Assembly: GCA_048939765.1 (NCBI GenBank)
Contig: JBHLPF010000058.1
Location: 1-13,509 of the forward strand
From: Promethearchaeota archaeon
GTDB taxonomy: Archaea > Asgardarchaeota > Thorarchaeia > Thorarchaeales > Thorarchaeaceae
Reading direction: 5' to 3'
DNA length: 13,509 nucleotides
The number at the start of each line of letters is the position of its first letter. Position 1 is the first letter of the stretch. The notes under the pieces were generated by a model. The model was not told where the DNA came from. It made no database searches and saw nothing but the letters and a program-made list of their open reading frames with translations. Shown here piece by piece: positions 1 through 11,978 of this stretch. The position numbers were made by a program, and so were the translations under genes.

Positions 1-737
1 TGCCCTCCGACAATCTTGAGGTATGCATCCTCAAGGTCCTCGGTTTTCGTGGAAGCCACGATCTCCTCAGGAGACCCGACTGTCACGAGAACGCCCTCGT
101 TGATTATGCCCACAATGTCACAAACATCCTCTGCAAAGGATGTCTGGTGTGTACAGATGAAGAAGGTGGTTTCAGTTTCTTCAGCGAGGACGAGGATAAG
201 GTCCTTGACAAGTGCTCCAGCACCTGGATCAAGCCTAGATGTGGGTTCATCTAGGAACACGAGCTTCGGCTCGTGAAGAATCGTGGACGCGACAAGGACC
301 TTCTGTTTCATTCCACTTGAGTATGTGTCAAGGAGATCATCCTGACGGCCCTCAAGTCCTAGCATGGTCAACAGACTGTCAATTCGCTTCCTGAGTGACT
401 CGCCCTCTAGGTTGTTCAACGCCCCTATGAACTCGAGGAACTCAATGGCTGTAAGCTTTGAGTAGAGACCAGGGGTTTCGGGCAGGAGGCCAGTCATAGA
501 CTTGATCTCTCCTGCCTTCTTGACTATATCCAGCCCTAGTACTGTTGCAGTGCCACTCGTGGGCCTCATAAGCCCAGAGAGCATGCGCACTGTGGTCGTC
601 TTGCCTGCACCGTTTGGTCCTAGGAAGCCGAAGCGACCTCCCGAGGCGACTTCAAGATCGAGGTTTCTGACTGCCTGGATTGGACCAAAGGTCTTGTTCA
701 GTCCCAAGGTCTGAATGGAGATGCCGTTATTACTCAT
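1..737 (-). CDS. ABC transporter ATP-binding protein (ABC-2/DrrA-like exporter ATPase), 3' end truncated by the window edge
   Basis: Not in the ORF track because it has no stop in the window. Manual translation from ATG 737 gives MSNNGISIQTLGLNKTFGPIQAVRNLDLEV...GFLGPNGAGKTTT (Walker A)...YSSGMKQ (signature)...VFLDEPTSRLD (Walker B/D-loop)...ICTH (H-switch)...AYLKIVGG. The frame is open to base 1. SD GGAGGTG lies at 746-752. It is colinear with the paralog at 2436-3206. Confidence 0.95.
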   Translation of the reverse strand, partial: MSNNGISIQTLGLNKTFGPIQAVRNLDLEVASGGRFGFLGPNGAGKTTTVRMLSGLMRPTSGTATVLGLDIVKKAGEIKSMTGLLPETPGLYSKLTAIEFLEFIGALNNLEGESLRKRIDSLLTMLGLEGRQDDLLDTYSSGMKQKVLVASTILHEPKLVFLDEPTSRLDPGAGALVKDLILVLAEETETTFFICTHQTSFAEDVCDIVGIINEGVLVTVGSPEEIVASTKTEDLEDAYLKIVGG

Positions 738-2435: not shown

Positions 2436-3206
2436 TCACCTCCAAGCCAAGAGAGATTCGCGGTCGACCTTGCCACCGACAACATTCAGGTATGCATTTT
2501 CCAGATTCCTCGCTCCAGCTGCTTCAATGATGTCGTGAGGTGCACCCTGTGTGACAATCTCACCCTTGTTGAGGATTGCAATGACATCACAGACATCTTC
2601 TGCAAAGCTGGTCATATGAGTGCAGATGAAGAAAGTCGTGTCTGTTTCCTCAGCAAGGACTAGAATCAAGTCCTTGACTACAGCGCTGGCACTGGGATCG
2701 AGCCGTGATGTAGGTTCGTCAAGAAAGACTACCTTTGGCTCATGTAGAAGTGTCGAGGCGACAAGGACCTTTTGCTTCATGCCTGATGAGTAAGACTCCA
2801 GCAAGTCGTCCTGCCTGCCCTCAAGTCCCAGTATACCAAGTAGGCTGTCAATGCGTCTGTGCACACCATCGCCATTCCTACCGTTGAGTGCTCCAATAAA
2901 TTCAAGGAACTCAACAGCAGACAGCTTCGAGTAAAGACCAGGGGTCTCCGGGAGCAGACCTGTAATTGCCTTGATGGCGTCGCGATCTTTGCTAACATCC
3001 ATGCCGCATACTTCGGCATATCCGCTAGTCTGTTTTAGTAGACCGGAGAGAATACGGACTGTGGTTGTCTTTCCAGCTCCGTTAGGACCAAGGAAGCCGA
3101 ACCTGCTGCCCGACATCACCTTTAGGTCTAGGTTACTTACGGCTCGAACAGAGTCGAATGACTTGTTCAGCCGCTCGGTTCGAATTGTTATTCCGTTTCT
3201 AGCCAA
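2436..3206 (-). CDS. ABC transporter ATP-binding protein (ABC-2/DrrA-like exporter ATPase)
   Basis: Walker A GPNGAGKTT, signature YSSGMKQ, Walker B VFLDEPT, H-switch ICTH. The likely start is TTG 3206: GGTGA precedes it and it aligns with Met1 of the paralog (LARNGI vs MSNNGI). The track's GTG 3215 is the alternative. Confidence 0.95.
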   Translation of the reverse strand: MARNGITIRTERLNKSFDSVRAVSNLDLKVMSGSRFGFLGPNGAGKTTTVRILSGLLKQTSGYAEVCGMDVSKDRDAIKAITGLLPETPGLYSKLSAVEFLEFIGALNGRNGDGVHRRIDSLLGILGLEGRQDDLLESYSSGMKQKVLVASTLLHEPKVVFLDEPTSRLDPSASAVVKDLILVLAEETDTTFFICTHMTSFAEDVCDVIAILNKGEIVTQGAPHDIIEAAGARNLENAYLNVVGGKVDRESLLAWR

Positions 3207-3267
3207 CTTGCTCACCGAAATTATGATGCAGTAAATGTTTACCGCAATCTATGTAAACAATCACCAC

Positions 3268-3287
3268 ATTTATATATAAATTTTCCC
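3268..3287 (-). promoter_or_regulatory. Archaeal BRE+TATA promoter for the ABC exporter operon
   Basis: The minus strand reads GGGAAAA-TTTATATA (purine-rich BRE directly before a TATA box), about 60 nt upstream of the ATPase start. ATTTATATATAAAT (3268-3281) is palindromic. Confidence 0.65.
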
Positions 3288-3303: not shown

Positions 3304-3332
3304 ATTACCCGAAAGCTTTATAGCTGGGTAAT
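3304..3332 (+). promoter_or_regulatory. BRE+TATA promoter of the regulator/bPH operon, bracketed by the inverted repeat ATTACCC-N15-GGGTAAT
   Basis: CGAAAG-C-TTTATAG at 3310-3323, about 35 nt upstream of ATG 3357. Perfect 7-bp arms at 3304-3310 and 3326-3332. Confidence 0.6.
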
Positions 3333-3356
3333 GACGAAAACAGTGAGGATAAGAAG

Positions 3357-3929
3357 ATGCTACTCTCAGTTCACGAAGCAACGGTCTGGTGGGAATTCCA
3401 GCAGGGAAAGACCACTGGAGAGATTGCAAGTGACTATGAGGGTCACGTAGTAGCTCCTAAATACGTCCATGCACTTTTCGAACAGTCTGAGAAGAGATCC
3501 GAGAGAGAAGGCATAGAGGACGTGCAACTCAAGGACACCCAGTATGTGTCAAGAGTTCTCAATAGAGCAAGAAGCAAGATTGAGAAGGCGCTCAGAGACC
3601 AAGCTAAGAGTCATCGGCTTGATATTGAAACCGTTCAAGACTACAAGGGGCTGTTGAGAGGATTCGACTACCAGGCAAACACAGAGGTCTACATCATCTA
3701 TACAATGAAGCTTGGCGTTGTGGTCTGGTATAAGCACGACTCCTATGCCGGCAAGCTCTGTCCGGATTGCCCGAAGCGGGAGGAGTGCCGTGAAACCCTT
3801 GATGCCATTATGACTGAATACAATATTACGCTGCGACCAGACGAGGAACAGCTCTACATGACGGAACAGTCCATTGCCATCTTCAACAAACTCGCTGCTA
3901 AAGAAGTACCGAGGTATAAGAGAGGATAA
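3357..3929 (+). CDS. Putative transcriptional regulator: sigma70-region-4/LuxR-like HTH plus C-terminal Cys cluster (H...CxxCx5C)
   Basis: LSVHEATVWWEFQQGKTTGEIA and TQYVSRVLNRARSKIEKAL match the 'L..re..v......G.s..EIA...VS..l.RA..Kl' HTH pattern. The C-terminal part contains WYKH...CPDCPKREEC. GAGG SD upstream. It is the first gene of a divergent operon. Confidence 0.7.
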   Translation: MLLSVHEATVWWEFQQGKTTGEIASDYEGHVVAPKYVHALFEQSEKRSEREGIEDVQLKDTQYVSRVLNRARSKIEKALRDQAKSHRLDIETVQDYKGLLRGFDYQANTEVYIIYTMKLGVVVWYKHDSYAGKLCPDCPKREECRETLDAIMTEYNITLRPDEEQLYMTEQSIAIFNKLAAKEVPRYKRG

Positions 3930-3945
3930 TGGAGAGTTGTGAAGA

Positions 3946-4698
3946 TTGGGTCGGGACTATGAAGGGAAATTAATCAGGCCACCAATGGAAACAGTGGCTT
4001 ATGGAAAAGTGTTCAAGCCGGCGGCGGCATTGAGGAACAAGTACTGGTTCATTGTGATAGTGACCCTGGTGACCATGTATGCAATAACCGCGGGAACATT
4101 CCTGGGGCTCTTCTACTTGCTATTCATGTTCGACAGCGAACTCTTTCAGTTCTCAGTTTGGCTGGATGTGATGTGGACACCGATCAACTTCTGGTTCTGG
4201 ACGATATCTTTAATCATAGTTGTTCCCGTGTTCGTGTTGATTCCGATCTACCTCAACAGGTTTGAGTACTCGGTCAGAGGTGAGTCAGGGAAGTCACTGC
4301 CTGAGATATACGTCAAGAAGGGACTCATTGATGTCACAGAGAAACATGTGCCATTGAGAACTATTACAAACATAGCTAGCAAGACCGGCCCCTTCGACAG
4401 GCTCTTCGGAATCGGCAATGTTGAGATTCATACTGCCGGCTACTCTGGTGGACCTTACGAAGGGGGAAAGCCTGAGGAGAAGATAGAGGGCATAGTATTC
4501 TATCAGGAGCTTCGGGACTTCATCCTGAGTGAAATGCGAAGTCTCAAGGGCACCTATGCAACCGCGACTGAAGTGCCTACAGAACAAGACGACACTATTC
4601 GTGTGGGTTCAATAGAGGAAGCAACACTAGTCACATTGCAAGACCTTCGTGATGTACTACGAAGAATAGAAGACAAACTTGACAGGAGTGGAATATGA
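3946..4698 (+). CDS. bPH_2 (YdbS-like, bacterial PH domain) membrane protein, copy 1
   Basis: Two TM segments, then EYSV...EIYVKKGLIDVTEKHVPLRTITNIASKTGPFDRLFGIGNVEIHTAG, which matches the PF03703-type pattern 'G......p..rI..v....gp..R.fG.g.v.i.TAG'. C-terminal helix LQDLRDVLRRIEDKL. TTG start after GGAGAG. Confidence 0.88.
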   Translation: MGRDYEGKLIRPPMETVAYGKVFKPAAALRNKYWFIVIVTLVTMYAITAGTFLGLFYLLFMFDSELFQFSVWLDVMWTPINFWFWTISLIIVVPVFVLIPIYLNRFEYSVRGESGKSLPEIYVKKGLIDVTEKHVPLRTITNIASKTGPFDRLFGIGNVEIHTAGYSGGPYEGGKPEEKIEGIVFYQELRDFILSEMRSLKGTYATATEVPTEQDDTIRVGSIEEATLVTLQDLRDVLRRIEDKLDRSGI

Positions 4699-4699
4699 G

Positions 4700-5467
4700 A
4701 TGGGAACCTATTATGACGAGAGAGTAATCAAGCCCCCGATGGAAAGGATAGCCAGTGGAAAGATCTTCAAGCCATCTAGGTCCTTCATCTTCAAGGGCTG
4801 GCTTCAGTCTATCATGTTCTTTGTAATCTGGTGGATTGTCGGAATGACTGCTTGGACTGGCCTGTCATTCATAATCTTGGTGTTCGATAGAGGCTTGACG
4901 CCTCTTCAACATGCCCAATACATGGGTACATGGTGGTGGCTAGTGAACATGTGGTATTGGGGCGTAGCCTGCCTCATTCTTGGTGTCTTTTTCACGGTTT
5001 GGGCCGTGTATGTCCTAAAGATTGAGTACTCGATTCTTGCAGAATCAGGAAGAGCAATGCCAGAGATCTATGTAAAGAAAGGCGTTCTCACTGTGACTGA
5101 GAAGCATGTGCCCTTCAGAACAATAACTTCCATCTTTTCAAAGAAAGGTGTGTTTGACAGGTTGTTCGGGATCGGAAGTGTTGAGATTCAGACTGCTGGA
5201 ATGACGGGAGGGTCATCCCCTGGCGGGTTCCAAGCAAAACCAGAGGAGAAACTCGAGGGGTTGCCATATTTCAACGAACTCCGCGATTTCATTCTTAGGG
5301 AACTCCGTAGATTCACAGGTCAATACGTAACCGGTACTGAGGTAGTCACTTCTCAACAGGAGGATACACTTGCAGGACTTGGACAAGGAGAGATATTGCG
5401 GACTCTGCAAGACATGCGTGACATCCTCAGGAGAATGGATGAAAAGCTTGACAGGAGGGATATCTAA
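4700..5467 (+). CDS. bPH_2 (YdbS-like) membrane protein, copy 2
   Basis: Same architecture (EIYVKKGVLTVTEKHVPFRTITSIFSKKGVFDRLFGIGSVEIQTAG). The start is moved to ATG 4700, 1 nt after the copy-1 stop, with AGGAG SD at 4684-4688. Confidence 0.88.
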   Translation: MGTYYDERVIKPPMERIASGKIFKPSRSFIFKGWLQSIMFFVIWWIVGMTAWTGLSFIILVFDRGLTPLQHAQYMGTWWWLVNMWYWGVACLILGVFFTVWAVYVLKIEYSILAESGRAMPEIYVKKGVLTVTEKHVPFRTITSIFSKKGVFDRLFGIGSVEIQTAGMTGGSSPGGFQAKPEEKLEGLPYFNELRDFILRELRRFTGQYVTGTEVVTSQQEDTLAGLGQGEILRTLQDMRDILRRMDEKLDRRDI

Positions 5468-5468
5468 G

Positions 5469-6230
5469 ATGAGTGATAGCAAAGTAATCAAACCCCCAAT
5501 TGAGGAGATCAAGAGCGGAAAGGTGTTCAGACCTGCTACAGCATTTGTATACAAGGGCTGGCTTGGAGCAATTCTGGGAGCAATAGGATTTTGGGCCCTT
5601 GCAATGGTTTCATGGCTGGGAACAGCATATCTCATAATCGTTTTTGACACTGGAACGACGTTTGCCAATTATCTCGTTTACCTAGATACTTGGTGGATTC
5701 CTGTCAACTTCTGGTGGTGGGTTCTAAATGCATTCTGGTTGATTCCTGCTATTCTCATATGGCCCTTCTATGTAAAGAGGTTCGAGTACTCAGTGATAGC
5801 TCATTCCGGTGAAACAATGCCGGAGATTTATGTCCGCAAGGGAATCATCACGGTCACTGAGAAACACGTGCCATTTCGAACAATAACGAATATCTCAAGC
5901 AAGGCGGGCCCCATTGATAGACTCTTCAAGATTGGAAGTGTTGAGATTCAGACAGCAGGCTATTCTGGAGGAGCTCAAGCTGGAGCCAAGCCTGAAGAGA
6001 AGCTAGAAGGGCTCCATATCTTTGAGTCCGTGAGGGACTTTGTACTAAGGGAGCTTAGAAGATTCACAGGCCAGTATGCCACCGGGACCGAAGTGGTTGC
6101 GCCTACTGATAAACCAGTGCAAAGAATGGATGACACGCTACAAGACGAAATACTAATCACACTACGGCAGATTAGAGATAAGATGGGTTCACTAGATGAA
6201 ATCTTGGACCTTCTTAAGAAAAAGGCATAG
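5469..6230 (+). CDS. bPH_2 (YdbS-like) membrane protein, copy 3
   Basis: Same architecture. The start is moved from the track's 5370 to ATG 5469 (MSDSKVIKPP), 1 nt after the copy-2 stop, with AGGAGG at 5453-5458. It aligns with the paralog N-termini. Confidence 0.88.
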   Translation: MSDSKVIKPPIEEIKSGKVFRPATAFVYKGWLGAILGAIGFWALAMVSWLGTAYLIIVFDTGTTFANYLVYLDTWWIPVNFWWWVLNAFWLIPAILIWPFYVKRFEYSVIAHSGETMPEIYVRKGIITVTEKHVPFRTITNISSKAGPIDRLFKIGSVEIQTAGYSGGAQAGAKPEEKLEGLHIFESVRDFVLRELRRFTGQYATGTEVVAPTDKPVQRMDDTLQDEILITLRQIRDKMGSLDEILDLLKKKA

Positions 6231-6242
6231 GCGAGTCAATGC

Positions 6243-6965
6243 ATGAGCGGTGAAGGGAAATTAATCAAACCCCCAATTGAAGAAGTGAAGAGCGGCAAGG
6301 TGTTCAAGCCATCGAAGGCTTTCCGCACCAAGAACTGGGTCCTTATGATTTTTATAGCAGTGGGGATCTGGGTGATGTTCATTTCCATCATGCTTGGAAT
6401 TGGGTATCTCGTGTTTGGCCTAACTGGACAGCCAGGATTTCAGGGCTGGGTCGATGTGTTCTGGGACGTCATCAATCCTTGGTACTGGCTGCTGACTGCC
6501 ATTTGGTTCATCCCTGCCTTCATCCTCTACCCGATCTACATCAATGCATTCGAGTATTCAGTCATTGCGGAGTCAGGTGAAACGATGCCTGAGATATACG
6601 TGAAGAAAGGTCTCATCAACATCACACGCAAGCACGTTCCCCTGAGAACGATAACCAACATCTCAACTCGTGCAGGTCCATTTGACCGCATCTTTGGAAT
6701 TGGCACCGTTGAGGTGGAAACAGCTGGAGCCTCAGGACCACAAGTCGGGGGATCAGCGGAGGAACGGCTGGAAGGTTTGGTCTTCTATGAAGAACTCCGT
6801 GACTTCATCCTACGCGAATTGCGCAGATTCAAGGACCCCTATGTAACCGGGACAGAGGTCGTAATCCCAGAGGATGAGAAGGTCATCAGAGTGGGCAGTT
6901 CAATAGAAGAAGAGGTCCTCAAGGTGCTTGAAGATATCCGTAATCTTCTCAGGGATCGTAGCTGA
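6243..6965 (+). CDS. bPH_2 (YdbS-like) membrane protein, copy 4
   Basis: IKPPIEEVKSGKVFKP N-terminal motif, 2 TM, EIYVKKGLINITRKHVPLRTITNISTRAGPFDRIFGIGTVEVETAG, C-terminal helix VLKVLEDIRNLL. Confidence 0.88.
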   Translation: MSGEGKLIKPPIEEVKSGKVFKPSKAFRTKNWVLMIFIAVGIWVMFISIMLGIGYLVFGLTGQPGFQGWVDVFWDVINPWYWLLTAIWFIPAFILYPIYINAFEYSVIAESGETMPEIYVKKGLINITRKHVPLRTITNISTRAGPFDRIFGIGTVEVETAGASGPQVGGSAEERLEGLVFYEELRDFILRELRRFKDPYVTGTEVVIPEDEKVIRVGSSIEEEVLKVLEDIRNLLRDRS

Positions 6966-6976
6966 GAGGGAGTACT

Positions 6977-7729
6977 ATGACTGAGGAATCTGCTCGCGTC
7001 ATCAAGCCCCCAAGCGATGAGTTTGAGAGTGGAAGAATCTTTAAGCCTCTTCCATCCCTTCGGCACAAGAAATGGCTGAAGTTCATCTTGGCTGCGTTCG
7101 CATTCTATGGCGTTTTCCTCTTTGCGTTTTTTGGCCCTCCAATTGTGACAGTATTTGTGATTGAGTTCATCCCCCTCAACCTCTATCTTCCTATGGACAG
7201 CTGGATTGTCGGAAGCCAGATCTATTGGCTGATAGCTCCATTTTGGTTAATTCCAGCGCTAATCTGGGTTCATCTCTATGTGAGGAGCATCGAGTATTCT
7301 GTAGTTGGTTGGCAGGGAGAAACAATGCCGGAGATCTACCAGAAGAAGGGCATCATCACGATAACGAAGAAGCATGTGCCATTCAAGAATATCACCCACG
7401 TGAAGAACAGAGTGGGGATATTTGATAGAATGTATGGGATTGGCTGTGTGAAGGTAGAAACAGCTGGTGAGAAAGGGGGGATGCAAGCCACGGGGGTATT
7501 GACGCTTATTATTTCGCGACTATATTCTTCCAGTTCCGAAGAAAACATAGAGGGCATCCGATTCCATGAGGAACTGAAGAGATTCATTCTGAAAGAGATG
7601 CGCGGATTTGGCAAAGCTCCTCATGTTTCCAGGGGAAGAAGAGTCACGTCCAAGGGTCTCTTCACAGAACGTACCCTGCGGGCCTTTCAAGATGTCAGAG
7701 ATGCGCTAAGAACTGAAGCACAAAGGTGA
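6977..7729 (+). CDS. bPH_2 (YdbS-like) membrane protein, copy 5 (most divergent)
   Basis: IKPP...SGRIFKP, 2 TM, EIYQKKGIITITKKHVPFKNITHVKNRVGIFDRMYGIGCVKVETAG. It has an extra hydrophobic loop insertion and a basic C-terminal linker. GAGGGAG SD upstream. Confidence 0.85.
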   Translation: MTEESARVIKPPSDEFESGRIFKPLPSLRHKKWLKFILAAFAFYGVFLFAFFGPPIVTVFVIEFIPLNLYLPMDSWIVGSQIYWLIAPFWLIPALIWVHLYVRSIEYSVVGWQGETMPEIYQKKGIITITKKHVPFKNITHVKNRVGIFDRMYGIGCVKVETAGEKGGMQATGVLTLIISRLYSSSSEENIEGIRFHEELKRFILKEMRGFGKAPHVSRGRRVTSKGLFTERTLRAFQDVRDALRTEAQR

Positions 7730-7735
7730 ATGGTA

Positions 7736-7825
7736 ATGCGAGCTATGAAGTATGTATTGGCACTATTATTGGGATTGTTGATGTTTTTCTTCTTCCTGGC
7801 ACTCTACCTCTCAGGACTTCTTTAA
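7736..7825 (+). CDS. Small single-pass membrane protein (29 aa, MRAMKYVLALLLGLLMFFFFLALYLSGLL)
   Basis: Below the ORF-track cutoff. AGGTGA SD (7724-7729) contains the copy-5 stop and lies 6 nt before ATG 7736. In-frame ATGs also occur at 7730 and 7745. A basic N-terminus is followed by 24 uncharged, mostly hydrophobic residues. It fills the gap to the convergent gene ending at 7829. Confidence 0.6.
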   Translation: MRAMKYVLALLLGLLMFFFFLALYLSGLL

Positions 7826-7828
7826 CAC

Positions 7829-8380
7829 TCAGTAGGTAAAGCCGAGAGGAACCGGGGGAGTAGTGATTAGTGCTTCTCCGTTGTCCCAGACGACGTGGAC
7901 TCTGGCATATAGATCAATGCCCTCCTCAAGGTCAGGGGAGTATATTGTTTCACGGTCGTTAGTAAACTGAATGAGATGCGAGCTGTTTGAGGGCACGGTG
8001 AACTCGTCGAAACAACAGGTAAGGCCTGGCTGAATCTTGAATGTGTGTAGGACGTTTCTACTGCCGCCAAAATAGACTGTGACAACGCGGACATCCAGCC
8101 CAAACACAGTTGTATTGGCGTGATTAGTCGCATTTATGCGGATCACTAGATAGAATGGAGGGCCCTCAGGAGGAATTTCAGGCATGAAATCTTGCCAAAA
8201 GTAAGCAGTAGCAGTTAGCTCGAGATTATCTACAATCACAGGTTCAACAGCCTGTGAAGGGGGTTCGTCTGGAGGCGCTACAGGAGGAATGAAGTCAGAG
8301 AGAAAGACAATGCTGCCTGCAACAAGCACCACTAGTACTACGATAAATGCAGACTCACCACGTGACGGTTTCATCATCAT
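7829..8380 (-). CDS. Hypothetical membrane-anchored/exported protein (N-terminal TM, Pro-rich linker, beta-rich domain)
   Basis: AFIVVLVVLVAGSIVFL anchor, then PPVAPPDEPP linker, then alternating beta-strand-like segments (FWQDFMP..PP.GPP, LVIRINATN). The start is probably one of the tandem ATGs at 8380/8377/8374; the track's start is 8401. Confidence 0.75.
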   Translation of the reverse strand: MMMKPSRGESAFIVVLVVLVAGSIVFLSDFIPPVAPPDEPPSQAVEPVIVDNLELTATAYFWQDFMPEIPPEGPPFYLVIRINATNHANTTVFGLDVRVVTVYFGGSRNVLHTFKIQPGLTCCFDEFTVPSNSSHLIQFTNDRETIYSPDLEEGIDLYARVHVVWDNGEALITTPPVPLGFTY

Positions 8381-8432
8381 CTCAAACAATATCGGTTTCA
8401 AAAGGTATTGACCCTTCCGAAATAGCAGCTAA

Positions 8433-10717: not shown

Positions 10718-11086
10718 TCAACACTTGCTGCAATCGCCTGTCTTCATCACGATTATTTTTGCGTCTTCAGCTATGTCTCCAAATACCTGATTGAAATAGC
10801 GTGCGGCTTCGATATAGCCTGCTATACCAGCTTCCGTCAATCTATAGACTCTCTGACGCCCTTCCTTTTCACTCTTGACAGTACCCCGATCCTCTAGATC
10901 TTTGAGAGCTGGATAGATAGTGCCTGGCGTGGGCTTTGTTCCTCGCCGCATAGCAATCTGTTCTGCAATCTGCTGCCCATTCAGTGGACCGTTTCGAAGC
11001 TCCCATAAAATCTGGAATGTGAGCATACCTCGCATATCACAGCAGTCTGGAGGGCAGCATTGCTCATTCTCACTATCCTCTGTCAC
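10718..11086 (-). CDS. PadR-family winged-helix regulator with Cys-rich termini (~122 aa)
   Basis: MRGMLTFQILWEL...PLNGQQIA...PTPGTIYPALKDLE..G.V......RQRVYRLTEAG is a PadR signature. The track's start (11242) overlaps arsM and the promoter. The likely start is GTG 11086, about 25 nt downstream of TTTAAA (11111-11116), implying a leaderless transcript. Confidence 0.9.
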   Translation of the reverse strand: MTEDSENEQCCPPDCCDMRGMLTFQILWELRNGPLNGQQIAEQIAMRRGTKPTPGTIYPALKDLEDRGTVKSEKEGRQRVYRLTEAGIAGYIEAARYFNQVFGDIAEDAKIIVMKTGDCSKC

Positions 11087-11092
11087 ATATAA

Positions 11093-11164
11093 TATCGGGT
11101 GTCCGATACATTTAAATGTATATGTAGGACGCCCGATATACTGTAGTGTATTGGACATCCAATA
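11093..11164. promoter_or_regulatory. Divergent padR/arsM promoter with three 16-bp palindromic operator copies and a palindromic TATA element
   Basis: TATCGGGTGTCCGATA (11093-11108), TGTAGGACGCCCGATA (11123-11138), TATTGGACATCCAATA (11149-11164). ATACATTTAAATGTAT is a perfect 16-bp palindrome at 11106-11121. Confidence 0.8.
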
Positions 11165-11177
11165 AAAGGTGAAAGTC

Positions 11178-11978
11178 TTGACAGAGATGAAGAAAGTCAG
11201 TGAGATGTCATCGGAAGAGATCAAAGATGCCGTAAAGGACACTTATTCCAAGGTTGCTCAACCAGCGGCTAGTAGCTGCTGTGGTCCAACTGAAACGGAA
11301 CAAGCAGCCTCTGATTGCAGAACAGCCGAATGTGCTCCTCCTGGTAATATACGAACATCCTATGCAGAATCCCTTGGCTATTCAGTGAAAGACATGCCAG
11401 AGTCAGCGACAGAGTCGTTTGCAGGATGTGGTAATCCCGTAGCCATCGCTAGCCTCAAAGAAGGAGAAGTAGTCCTAGACTTGGGGAGTGGAGCTGGACT
11501 AGACATGTTCCATGCCGCAAGGAAGGTTGGCGATACCGGTCGAGTGATAGGTGTCGATATGACTCCAGCGATGATCGAGAAAGCGAAGCTTGGAGCAGAG
11601 GAGCTGGGGCTTGAGAATGTCGAGTTCAGATTGGGTGACATAGAAGACCTGCCAGTGGAGGACAGCTCTATAGATGTCGTCATCAGCAATTGTGTCATCA
11701 ACCTCGCACCTGACAAAGGCCAAGTGTTCCGTGAGGCGTACAGAGTCCTTCGACCAGGCGGAAGAGTCATGGTTTCTGACATAGTTCTTGAAGCCAATTT
11801 GCCGGAAAAGGTCCGTGACGAGATAGCCAACTATACAGGTTGTCTTGGGGGTGCCATTCTCGAGGAGGAGTATCTCCAGCATATGCGCGATGCAGGATTC
11901 GAGGGAGTGGAAGTCGTCAGCAAGACTGGTTTCGGTCGATCATCCAGTGCAAAGATTGCGGCATACAAACCCAAGTAA
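11178..11978 (+). CDS. arsM: Arsenite S-adenosylmethionine methyltransferase
   Basis: IKDAVKDTY..VA, SSCCG, GCGNP.AIA.LKEGEVVLDLGSGAGLD, IGVDMTPAM, DVVISNCVINL.PDK, RVLRPGG...SD, GCLGGA. The catalytic Cys positions of ArsM are present. The start is probably TTG 11178 after AGGTGA (11167-11172); GTG 11169 and ATG 11187 are alternatives. Confidence 0.93.
   Translation: MTEMKKVSEMSSEEIKDAVKDTYSKVAQPAASSCCGPTETEQAASDCRTAECAPPGNIRTSYAESLGYSVKDMPESATESFAGCGNPVAIASLKEGEVVLDLGSGAGLDMFHAARKVGDTGRVIGVDMTPAMIEKAKLGAEELGLENVEFRLGDIEDLPVEDSSIDVVISNCVINLAPDKGQVFREAYRVLRPGGRVMVSDIVLEANLPEKVRDEIANYTGCLGGAILEEEYLQHMRDAGFEGVEVVSKTGFGRSSSAKIAAYKPK

Follow-up and report, generated by a model that had tools for sequence, protein, structure and literature searches.

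An archaeal array of YdbS-like PH-domain membrane paralogs with a dedicated regulator as a candidate heteromeric membrane complex

Membrane proteins carrying the bacterial pleckstrin homology (PH) domain bPH_2 are widespread and their mechanism is not understood; the sole genetics available on them points to the transport of, or susceptibility to, small membrane-active peptides. In this study we analyzed a locus on contig JBHLPF010000058.1 (assembly GCA_048939765.1) of a Thorarchaeota archaeon, in which five tandem genes for bPH_2 membrane paralogs follow the gene of a predicted regulator, and genes of an ATP-binding cassette (ABC) exporter lie divergently upstream (Table 1). In the closest described system, YdbS has one unit of transmembrane (TM) hairpin and bPH_2 domain and YdbT has three (PMC8657885). 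An earlier note on the present DNA had described bPH_2 proteins as usually single or paired, which misses the three units of YdbT; because of these, YdbS and YdbT already make four units in two genes. In Enterococcus faecalis, DdE and DdF are both required, alongside an ABC transporter, for the export of a leaderless bacteriocin (PMC8657885), and YdbS/T-like genes recur in further leaderless-bacteriocin loci. In Staphylococcus aureus, loss of ydbT/ydbS raises the resistance to two helical antimicrobial peptides (bioRxiv 10.64898/2026.07.05.736553). The PHb domains of family PF08000 form C5 and C12 rings (PMC2817789), so no particular ring size is implied for PH assemblies. We found no published description of archaeal bPH arrays in the literature.

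The window, that is, the whole 13,509-nt stretch analyzed, is an entire 13.5-kb contig of a metagenome-assembled genome of 3.37 Mb with a completeness of 88.5%. As the earlier note had read from the letters, the five genes are intact, encode proteins of 240 to 255 aa, and are separated by 1, 1, 12, and 11 nt; the 190-aa open reading frame (ORF) upstream and the small ORF downstream are also real and are conserved among related loci. Paralog 1 has a TTG start codon at the position where its close relatives have ATG. These five are the only copies of the gene found in the genome at its present completeness. The comparison comprised 79 related loci, 40 related genomes, and 196 extracted full-length copies. 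All Bathyarchaeia loci and some Asgard loci have a single copy; in Thorarchaeota the number is 2, 3, or 4, with 4 being the commonest, and five copies occur only in the genus of the window. The intergenic gaps across all arrays are mostly 0 to 13 nt.

The copies are orthologous by position. Both a FastTree phylogeny of all 196 copies and an IQ-TREE mixture-model phylogeny of the 77 copies from complete arrays grouped them by array position and never by genome. Not one of the 170 copies from multi-copy arrays had its nearest neighbor in the same genome, and for 90 of the 98 copies in complete arrays the nearest neighbor held the same place when positions were counted from the array end. The last copies of every three-, four-, and five-copy array fall into one clade, the first copies have a clade of their own, and copies 2 and 3 form one joint clade (supports in Table 1), while the penultimate copies form another, with a value of 80 in the Shimodaira-Hasegawa-like approximate likelihood ratio test (SH-aLRT) in IQ-TREE and of 88 in FastTree. 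Four-copy arrays hold either the copy-2 type or the copy-3 type. The terminal and penultimate types were found only in arrays of at least three copies and never alone. Compared with three relatives, the ratio of nonsynonymous to synonymous substitutions (dN/dS) is 0.04 to 0.09 for each of the five copies. Paralogs share 60% identity in the PH domain and 27% in the TM helices, whose identity among orthologs is 54 to 76%. The five copies are thus old, stable, position-specific paralogs with one-to-one positional orthology and a conserved gene order, and the module is a conserved archaeal one and no accident of local duplication. The earlier note had set a hetero-oligomer against an array with freely varying copy number whose paralogs cluster by genome; the clustering turned out to be by position, which speaks against such an array, though the copy number does vary from 1 to 5.

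Gene conversion between the paralogs was considered and rejected, as the direct repeats in the window are just 60 to 84% identical over 17 to 244 nt and contain no identical tracts. Some related loci deviate in their details. In one four-copy group, copies 1 and 2 are 376 to 385 nt apart, and the space between them holds a conserved ORF that encodes about 72 aa and two TM segments (L051:4833-5218, and correspondingly in L061, L073, L074, L082, L092, and L094); the window lacks this ORF. L019 (G019:C8:21586-22320) has one bPH copy, which contains one in-frame TGA, and in L040 and L042 one bPH copy is split by a frameshift; these copies may be pseudogenes or assembly errors.

All five proteins match the bPH_2 profile PF03703 (E values of 5.5e-7 to 3e-11; 30.2 to 43.8 bits against a gathering cut-off of 22), as the earlier note had expected, although most copies match only positions 12 to 60 of the 78 in the profile. 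Their pairwise identity is 35 to 53%, and the N-terminal and PH motifs previously read from them recur with small deviations (K replaced by R in copies 1, 3, and 5; E by D in copy 5). An AlphaFold2 (AF2) model of copy 4, built on 145 homologs with a predicted local distance difference test score (pLDDT) of 82, consists of a TM hairpin (residues 25-61 and 66-101), a PH domain (104-196; strands within 104-179, then a helix, 182-196), and, at the C-terminus, a further helix (221-239). The N-tail is partly ordered with a short strand at 20-21, and the linker before the C-terminal helix has low confidence. The model thus agrees with the earlier reading of two TM helices, a bPH domain, and a C-terminal helix. 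The modeled domain is a PH-like fold, with a seven-stranded sandwich and a C-terminal capping helix: the best Foldseek matches are the bacterial PH domains 3dcx and 3hsa (probabilities of 1.00 and 0.99, root-mean-square deviation [rmsd] of 3.1 to 3.5 Å over 98 columns), and VIA-align gave Z scores of about 8 to PH, PTB, and FERM-F3 domains. Many of the VIA alignments start at residue 17 or 18, which means that the conserved N-terminal GKVFKP motif is modeled as an additional strand of the PH sheet, like the peptide held by a PTB domain. By the positive-inside rule, we read the N-tail, the PH domain, and the C-terminal helix as probably cytoplasmic.

The arrangement of two TM helices directly before one bPH_2 domain, as in YdbS (COG3402), is present in the copy 4 model. 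The fusion of three units that defines YdbT (COG3428) is absent, all array copies being single-unit. Existing public annotations call the archaeal proteins YdbS-like or PH domain containing, and JGI names homologs membrane protein YdbS. The terminal type differs from the others throughout its clade by a conserved hydrophobic insert of about 10 aa in a loop of the PH domain and by a basic linker, where the other copies have an acidic one with the motif PYVTGTEV. In many copies the C-terminal helix has the motif L-R-E-I-R-D-x-L, which by eye resembles, over only about 10 residues, what we take to be the motif of the C-terminal bundle of MscL. MscL (PF01741) was not matched in Pfam by the whole proteins or by their C-terminal 45 residues at E ≤ 10, and it is not among the best 50 VIA matches of the copy 4 model. 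PF08000 was not matched by the bPH proteins of the window at E ≤ 0.1. A search with profiles A2 and A3 against the sequences of solved structures found nothing meaningful. The only longer homolog found is P0335 (512 aa, from one NCBI contig), in which one bPH unit carries a helical, coiled-coil-like C-terminal extension of about 290 aa in place of the C-terminal helix.

The 190-aa ORF had been labeled a regulator in the earlier note, and this label can be supported and extended by a helix-turn-helix (HTH) fold match, a palindrome at the promoter, and a family of paralogs. In every one of the 79 loci, the gene directly precedes the array and shares its strand. Each of the 21 genomes with an array has exactly one copy of it, and the other 20 genomes have none. 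Its product is more conserved than the membrane proteins, with identities of 55 to 98% across Thorarchaeota and Bathyarchaeia (alignment A2) and of 55 to 75% between the two phyla. Four residues, H127, C135, C138, and C144, are invariant, and this His-Cys3 site is predicted to be a metal or redox site. The AF2 model of the regulator (pLDDT of 93) has an N-terminal HTH, a long helix, and an alpha/beta domain that carries the His-Cys3 site. In VIA-align, the first ~85 residues superpose on sigma-70 region 4, LuxR/GerE, and EnfR (Z of 3.4 to 4.9, rmsd of 0.8 to 1.5 Å over ~50 residues); for sigma region 4 and EnfR the values are a Z of 4 to 5 and an rmsd of 0.8 to 1.2 Å over ~51 residues. Foldseek found no match for the model in the PDB at E ≤ 0.001, and with VIA only the HTH part was matched, the C-terminal domain remaining without a counterpart. 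In the lineage of the window, about 30 aa are inserted between two HTH helices; the Bathyarchaeia proteins do not have the insert. No Pfam or NCBIfam family was matched by the regulator. Its family comprises about 650 clusters at 90% identity, all annotated as hypothetical, and at 50% identity three clusters plus about 90 remote relatives of 150 to 170 aa.

Seven such remote paralogs (156 to 162 aa, E of 1e-10 to 1e-14) are encoded in the same genome. All of them retain W11, W124, and the four invariant residues of the His-Cys3 site, and the stop codon of each overlaps the start codon of a downstream gene for a membrane protein. The downstream partners share a conserved N-terminal peptide (GQDV..SR.C..PPGP), at least one TM segment, and beta-helix-like repeats. 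Because every remote paralog overlaps a membrane protein gene, the regulator family appears to be hard-wired to membrane partners.

The intergenic region between the regulator and the ABC ATPase contains a compact palindrome (GTAAA-N2-TTTAC), situated between the start of the divergent ATPase gene and a palindromic TATA-like element, which is a candidate core of a bidirectional promoter. A relaxed form of the palindrome was found in 54 of 68 regulator upstream regions (200 nt), compared with a single match among the other 709,605 bases of these loci. It stands next to a TATA-like box in Thorarchaeota and Bathyarchaeia alike. Loci without the compact palindrome have GTAAACA/TGTTTAC half-sites at other spacings; in loci of the L031 type, the arrangement of the wider inverted repeat is kept and the compact palindrome is missing. 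A noncoding 12-mer that is kept across two phyla is hard to explain except as an operator, and we suggest it as the candidate operator of the regulator. In Bathyarchaeia the palindrome comes straight after the TATA box. A site at this position is the usual one for archaeal repressors, and it is therefore reasonable to suppose that the regulator might repress its own operon. Another conserved element, AACC-TTTATAGCTGGGT, stands some 40 nt ahead of the regulator start codon in the window (3310-3335) and in L031, L064, and L075, and may be a proximal promoter; the L075 element has an AACCCA/TGGGTT inverted repeat on its flanks. Across the 3.37 Mb of the genome, TAAA (5,210 occurrences) and TTTA (5,228 occurrences) are about three times rarer than predicted from the base composition. 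A scan for bacterial sigma-70 promoters and terminators was uninformative, the host being an archaeon.

The small ORF behind the array begins right after the stop codon of paralog 5. Single-TM ORFs of 30 to 33 aa with a conserved pattern are found at −3 to +19 nt from the end of the last copy after all 5 five-copy arrays, about 16 of the 18 four-copy arrays, and many two- and three-copy arrays; no convincing counterpart was found after any of the single-copy loci. The 31-aa ORF of the window is a plain TM helix and not an amphipathic cationic peptide. On the other side of the regulator, the best NCBIfam model for the divergent ATPase is TIGR01188 (drrA), with a score under the model cut-off. 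Most Thorarchaeota loci with enough flanking sequence have divergent ATPase-permease(-ATPase) genes, and a tandem second ATPase-permease module is seen in L031 and L047. This DrrA-type exporter provides the context for a possible link of the array with peptide export, immunity, or envelope stress.

Based on these results, we suggest, with a probability of about 0.5, that the locus encodes a heteromeric membrane complex which, controlled by a dedicated regulator, acts jointly with the exporter on small membrane-active molecules. The regulator would bind, most likely as a dimer, to the GTAAA-N2-TTTAC palindromes, which overlap the promoter region common to the two operons, and would thereby govern the divergent ABC-2-type exporter as well as its own operon. 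The five paralogs and the TM microprotein would most likely assemble into one complex, an unfused counterpart of the bacterial YdbS and YdbT with their 1 + 3 units, in which the PH domains and the C-terminal amphipathic helices may oligomerize beneath the membrane and the divergent TM hairpins may pack side by side. By analogy with DdE/DdF and with YdbST of S. aureus, complex and exporter might act on small amphipathic peptides or other membrane-active molecules, for export, immunity, or protection against envelope stress; this role is favored because the nearest genetics is that of DdE/DdF export, the bacteriocin loci, and the S. aureus ydbT/ydbS genes. An obligate hetero-oligomer is favored by the tight coupling of the genes, the paralog-specific conserved TM hairpins, and the lack of lone terminal or penultimate types. 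Several observations weigh against this interpretation. The single-copy loci of Bathyarchaeia and some Asgard archaea show that one protein can act alone, and with 1 to 5 copies the gene count gives no fixed stoichiometry. An ABC ATPase is nearby in only 4 of about 13 Bathyarchaeia loci, no gene for a bacteriocin-like cationic peptide was recognized by inspection of the ORFs in the window, and a search for longer proteins of the subfamily, which is weak evidence, found no fused archaeal multi-unit forms. In addition, the related loci are phylogenetically non-independent, which applies to the palindrome counts as well.

It could also be proposed that the paralogs are subfunctionalized and independent, each forming its own homo-oligomer with the specificity for a ligand or partner in the TM hairpin, so that they are coexpressed without being parts of one complex. 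Single-copy loci are indeed common, the hairpins are the part that diverges most between paralogs and yet is kept within ortholog groups, and copies 2 and 3 look interchangeable in four-copy arrays. However, the terminal and penultimate types never occur alone, the order in the array is strictly conserved with translationally coupled genes, and the closest system studied requires DdE as well as DdF, which leaves this explanation unlikely, though the strongest of the alternatives. Tandem paralogs with variable outer loops and TM segments might suggest an array of receptor or immunity proteins that act independently and diversify rapidly, but this reading is effectively refuted: the paralogs cluster by position and no copy groups with another from its own genome, the low dN/dS values indicate strong purifying selection, and the window has no tracts of recent conversion or duplication, its similar stretches of DNA being short and only 60 to 84% identical.

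The earlier note had gone further and proposed that the five diverged subunits could build one heteropentameric ring with the C-terminal helices in a bundle; in its exact form this would be a 1:1:1:1:1 ring with a five-helix, MscL-like bundle. The hetero-oligomeric part of this proposal fits the positional orthology, and the coupling of five genes, the C5 pentamers in which PF08000 PHb1 domains crystallize, and the likeness of the helix motif to that of MscL (by eye) could be taken in its favor. The fixed number of five is not favored, because the copy number varies and copies 2 and 3 share a clade, either of them filling the second slot. Only the genus of the window has five copies, and the same parts occur as 4, 3, 2, or 1 elsewhere; the fifth copy amounts to the retention of both members of the copy 2/3 clade. 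PHb rings are also C12, and the proteins have neither a PF08000 nor an MscL family match, nor MscL among their best 50 VIA matches. We therefore consider the exact pentamer improbable. A further possibility, compatible with the heteromeric complex rather than exclusive of it, is a membrane-tethered switch resembling a sigma/anti-sigma pair, in which the bPH proteins would act as sensors, keeping the regulator at the membrane until envelope stress sets it free, with the exporter as the output. This would suit the conservation of the regulator between phyla, which exceeds that of its partners, its co-occurrence with the array without exception, the seven remote paralogs that keep the His-Cys3 site and overlap genes of membrane proteins with a conserved cytoplasmic N-terminal peptide, and the fact that many of the best fold matches of the regulator are sigma region 4 in complex with anti-sigma factors. 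In the AF2 model, however, the bPH N-tail packs on its own PH domain as an extra strand and would not be free, and five paralogs are not obviously needed for a sensor; we hold the switch to be rather doubtful.

Table 1. Features of the locus, its promoter region, and the remote regulator paralogs of the same genome (positions refer to the window unless a contig is given).
Feature	Position	Strand	Remark
Second ABC ATPase	3-737	-	Opens a second ATPase-permease module, truncated at the contig end
ABC-system polytopic permease, 580 aa	743-2485	-	Without Pfam family; kept beside the ATPase in related loci
ABC ATPase, DrrA/ABC-2 exporter type	2436-3215	-	PF00005 match; divergent from the regulator gene
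Candidate operator, palindrome GTAAATGTTTAC (GTAAA-N2-TTTAC)	3231-3242		Only strict occurrence in the 3.37-Mb genome
Wider inverted repeat TGTTTAC-N10-GTAAACA	3236-3259		Overlaps the compact palindrome; arms 3226-3242 / 3253-3269
Palindromic TATA-like element TTTATATATAAA	3269-3280		Between the divergent operons; kept in most Thorarchaeota loci
Regulator, 190 aa	3357-3929	+	Unnamed family; directly 5' of the array in 79/79 loci
bPH_2 membrane paralog 1, 250 aa	3946-4698	+	Own ortholog clade, SH-aLRT 95; dN/dS 0.05-0.07
bPH_2 membrane paralog 2, 255 aa	4700-5467	+	Shares a clade with paralog 3 (support 95); orthologs are the second slot in L064/L075
bPH_2 membrane paralog 3, 253 aa	5469-6230	+	Orthologs are the second slot in L031/L047
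bPH_2 membrane paralog 4, 240 aa, penultimate type	6243-6965	+	Clade spans three- to five-copy arrays
bPH_2 membrane paralog 5, 250 aa, terminal type	6977-7729	+	Clade support 100, long stem; always closes the array
Single-TM microprotein, 31 aa (or 29 aa with the second ATG, at 7736, as start)	7730-7825	+	Hydrophobic ORF
Remote regulator paralogs (L112-L117)	G000 C78:75280-79811; C12:131-1389; C105:10082-13013; C27:982-2879; C50:103005-104818; C64:87395-89844		

Downstream of the array, a convergent ORF of 190 aa (7829-8401, minus strand) with an N-terminal TM segment and no family is kept only in the nearest relatives and in L047. It is followed by a gene for a xylose-isomerase-like TIM-barrel protein (PF01261; 8433-9269, minus strand), which lies 3' of the array in many Thorarchaeota loci; the adjacency is probably synteny only. 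Farther along (10718-11978), a gene for a PadR-type regulator with Cys-rich extensions diverges from a gene for an S-adenosylmethionine-dependent methyltransferase.

The regulator family, its candidate operator, the positional orthology, and the microprotein are new here. As a natural unfused system with up to five separate subunits, a terminal type, and a microprotein, the array makes the order and stoichiometry of the subunits directly testable. Since the regulator family is systematically paired with membrane proteins, it may represent a general means by which these archaea link envelope events with transcription. Speculatively, the 190-aa protein could be the founder of an archaeal family of His-Cys3 HTH regulators, each member hard-wired to a downstream membrane partner, with a heteromeric PH ring as a sensor that both holds the regulator and takes part in the response, turning on the ABC exporter when the membrane is attacked. 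This full picture is an unlikely one, but if it is true, it would be an archaeal counterpart of sigma/anti-sigma logic with eight family members in this genome. The extra evolutionary interest that the earlier note attached to an Asgard host does not hold, as Bathyarchaeia also have the family, and for the same reason the system has little bearing on the origin of eukaryotes.

In comparison with known systems, the PH domain has its best structural match in PHb1 and PHb2 (PF08000, DUF1696; 3dcx, 3hsa, and 3b77), which build cyclic rings through edge-strand pairing (PMC2817789). Unlike the array proteins, these are soluble, belong to another Pfam family, and have no TM hairpin. The regulator resembles Tfx/EnfR (TON_1525, PDB 8hno) in its N-terminal HTH of the sigma-70 region 4 type, its long helix, and its alpha+beta head; the superposition on EnfR has a Z of 4.8 and an rmsd of 1.0 Å over 51 residues with 26% identity. 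EnfR is a dimer that binds a pseudo-palindrome at the promoter (PMC10570040). By language-model features, Tfx clusters are the nearest named families (scores of 0.76 to 0.80), which serves as a lead only. However, the C-terminal domain of the regulator did not superpose, TFX_C (PF14601) was matched neither in the regulator nor in the whole genome at E ≤ 1, and an invariant His-Cys3 site and an obligatory downstream membrane partner have not been described for Tfx.

A likeness also exists to the pairs of extracytoplasmic function (ECF) sigma and anti-sigma factors, in that a protein with a region 4-type HTH is predicted to be cotranscribed with a membrane protein that has a cytoplasmic N-terminus, which applies to 8 of the 8 family members in the genome. 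Unlike ECF sigma factors, the regulator has no sigma region 2, and archaea are not known to use sigma factors. That the regulator might be sequestered at the membrane, as in anti-sigma pairs, is suggested purely by analogy.

The nearest relatives of the array remain YdbS/YdbT of Bacillus subtilis (COG3402/COG3428) and DdE/DdF. Unlike in the bacterial systems, the archaeal units are all separate genes (1 to 5) without the three-unit fusion, and the proteins have conserved additions: a strand motif at the N-terminus, a motif in the linker, and a helix at the C-terminus. The archaeal array also has a specialized terminal paralog and a TM microprotein with no bacteriocin gene seen, and its regulator is a dedicated one of an unnamed family and not sigma-W. 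Common to both are the TM hairpin followed by a cytoplasmic bPH_2 domain, the presence of several units side by side, and the linkage to an ABC transporter; in the bacterial systems, both genes are needed and small membrane-active peptides are handled.

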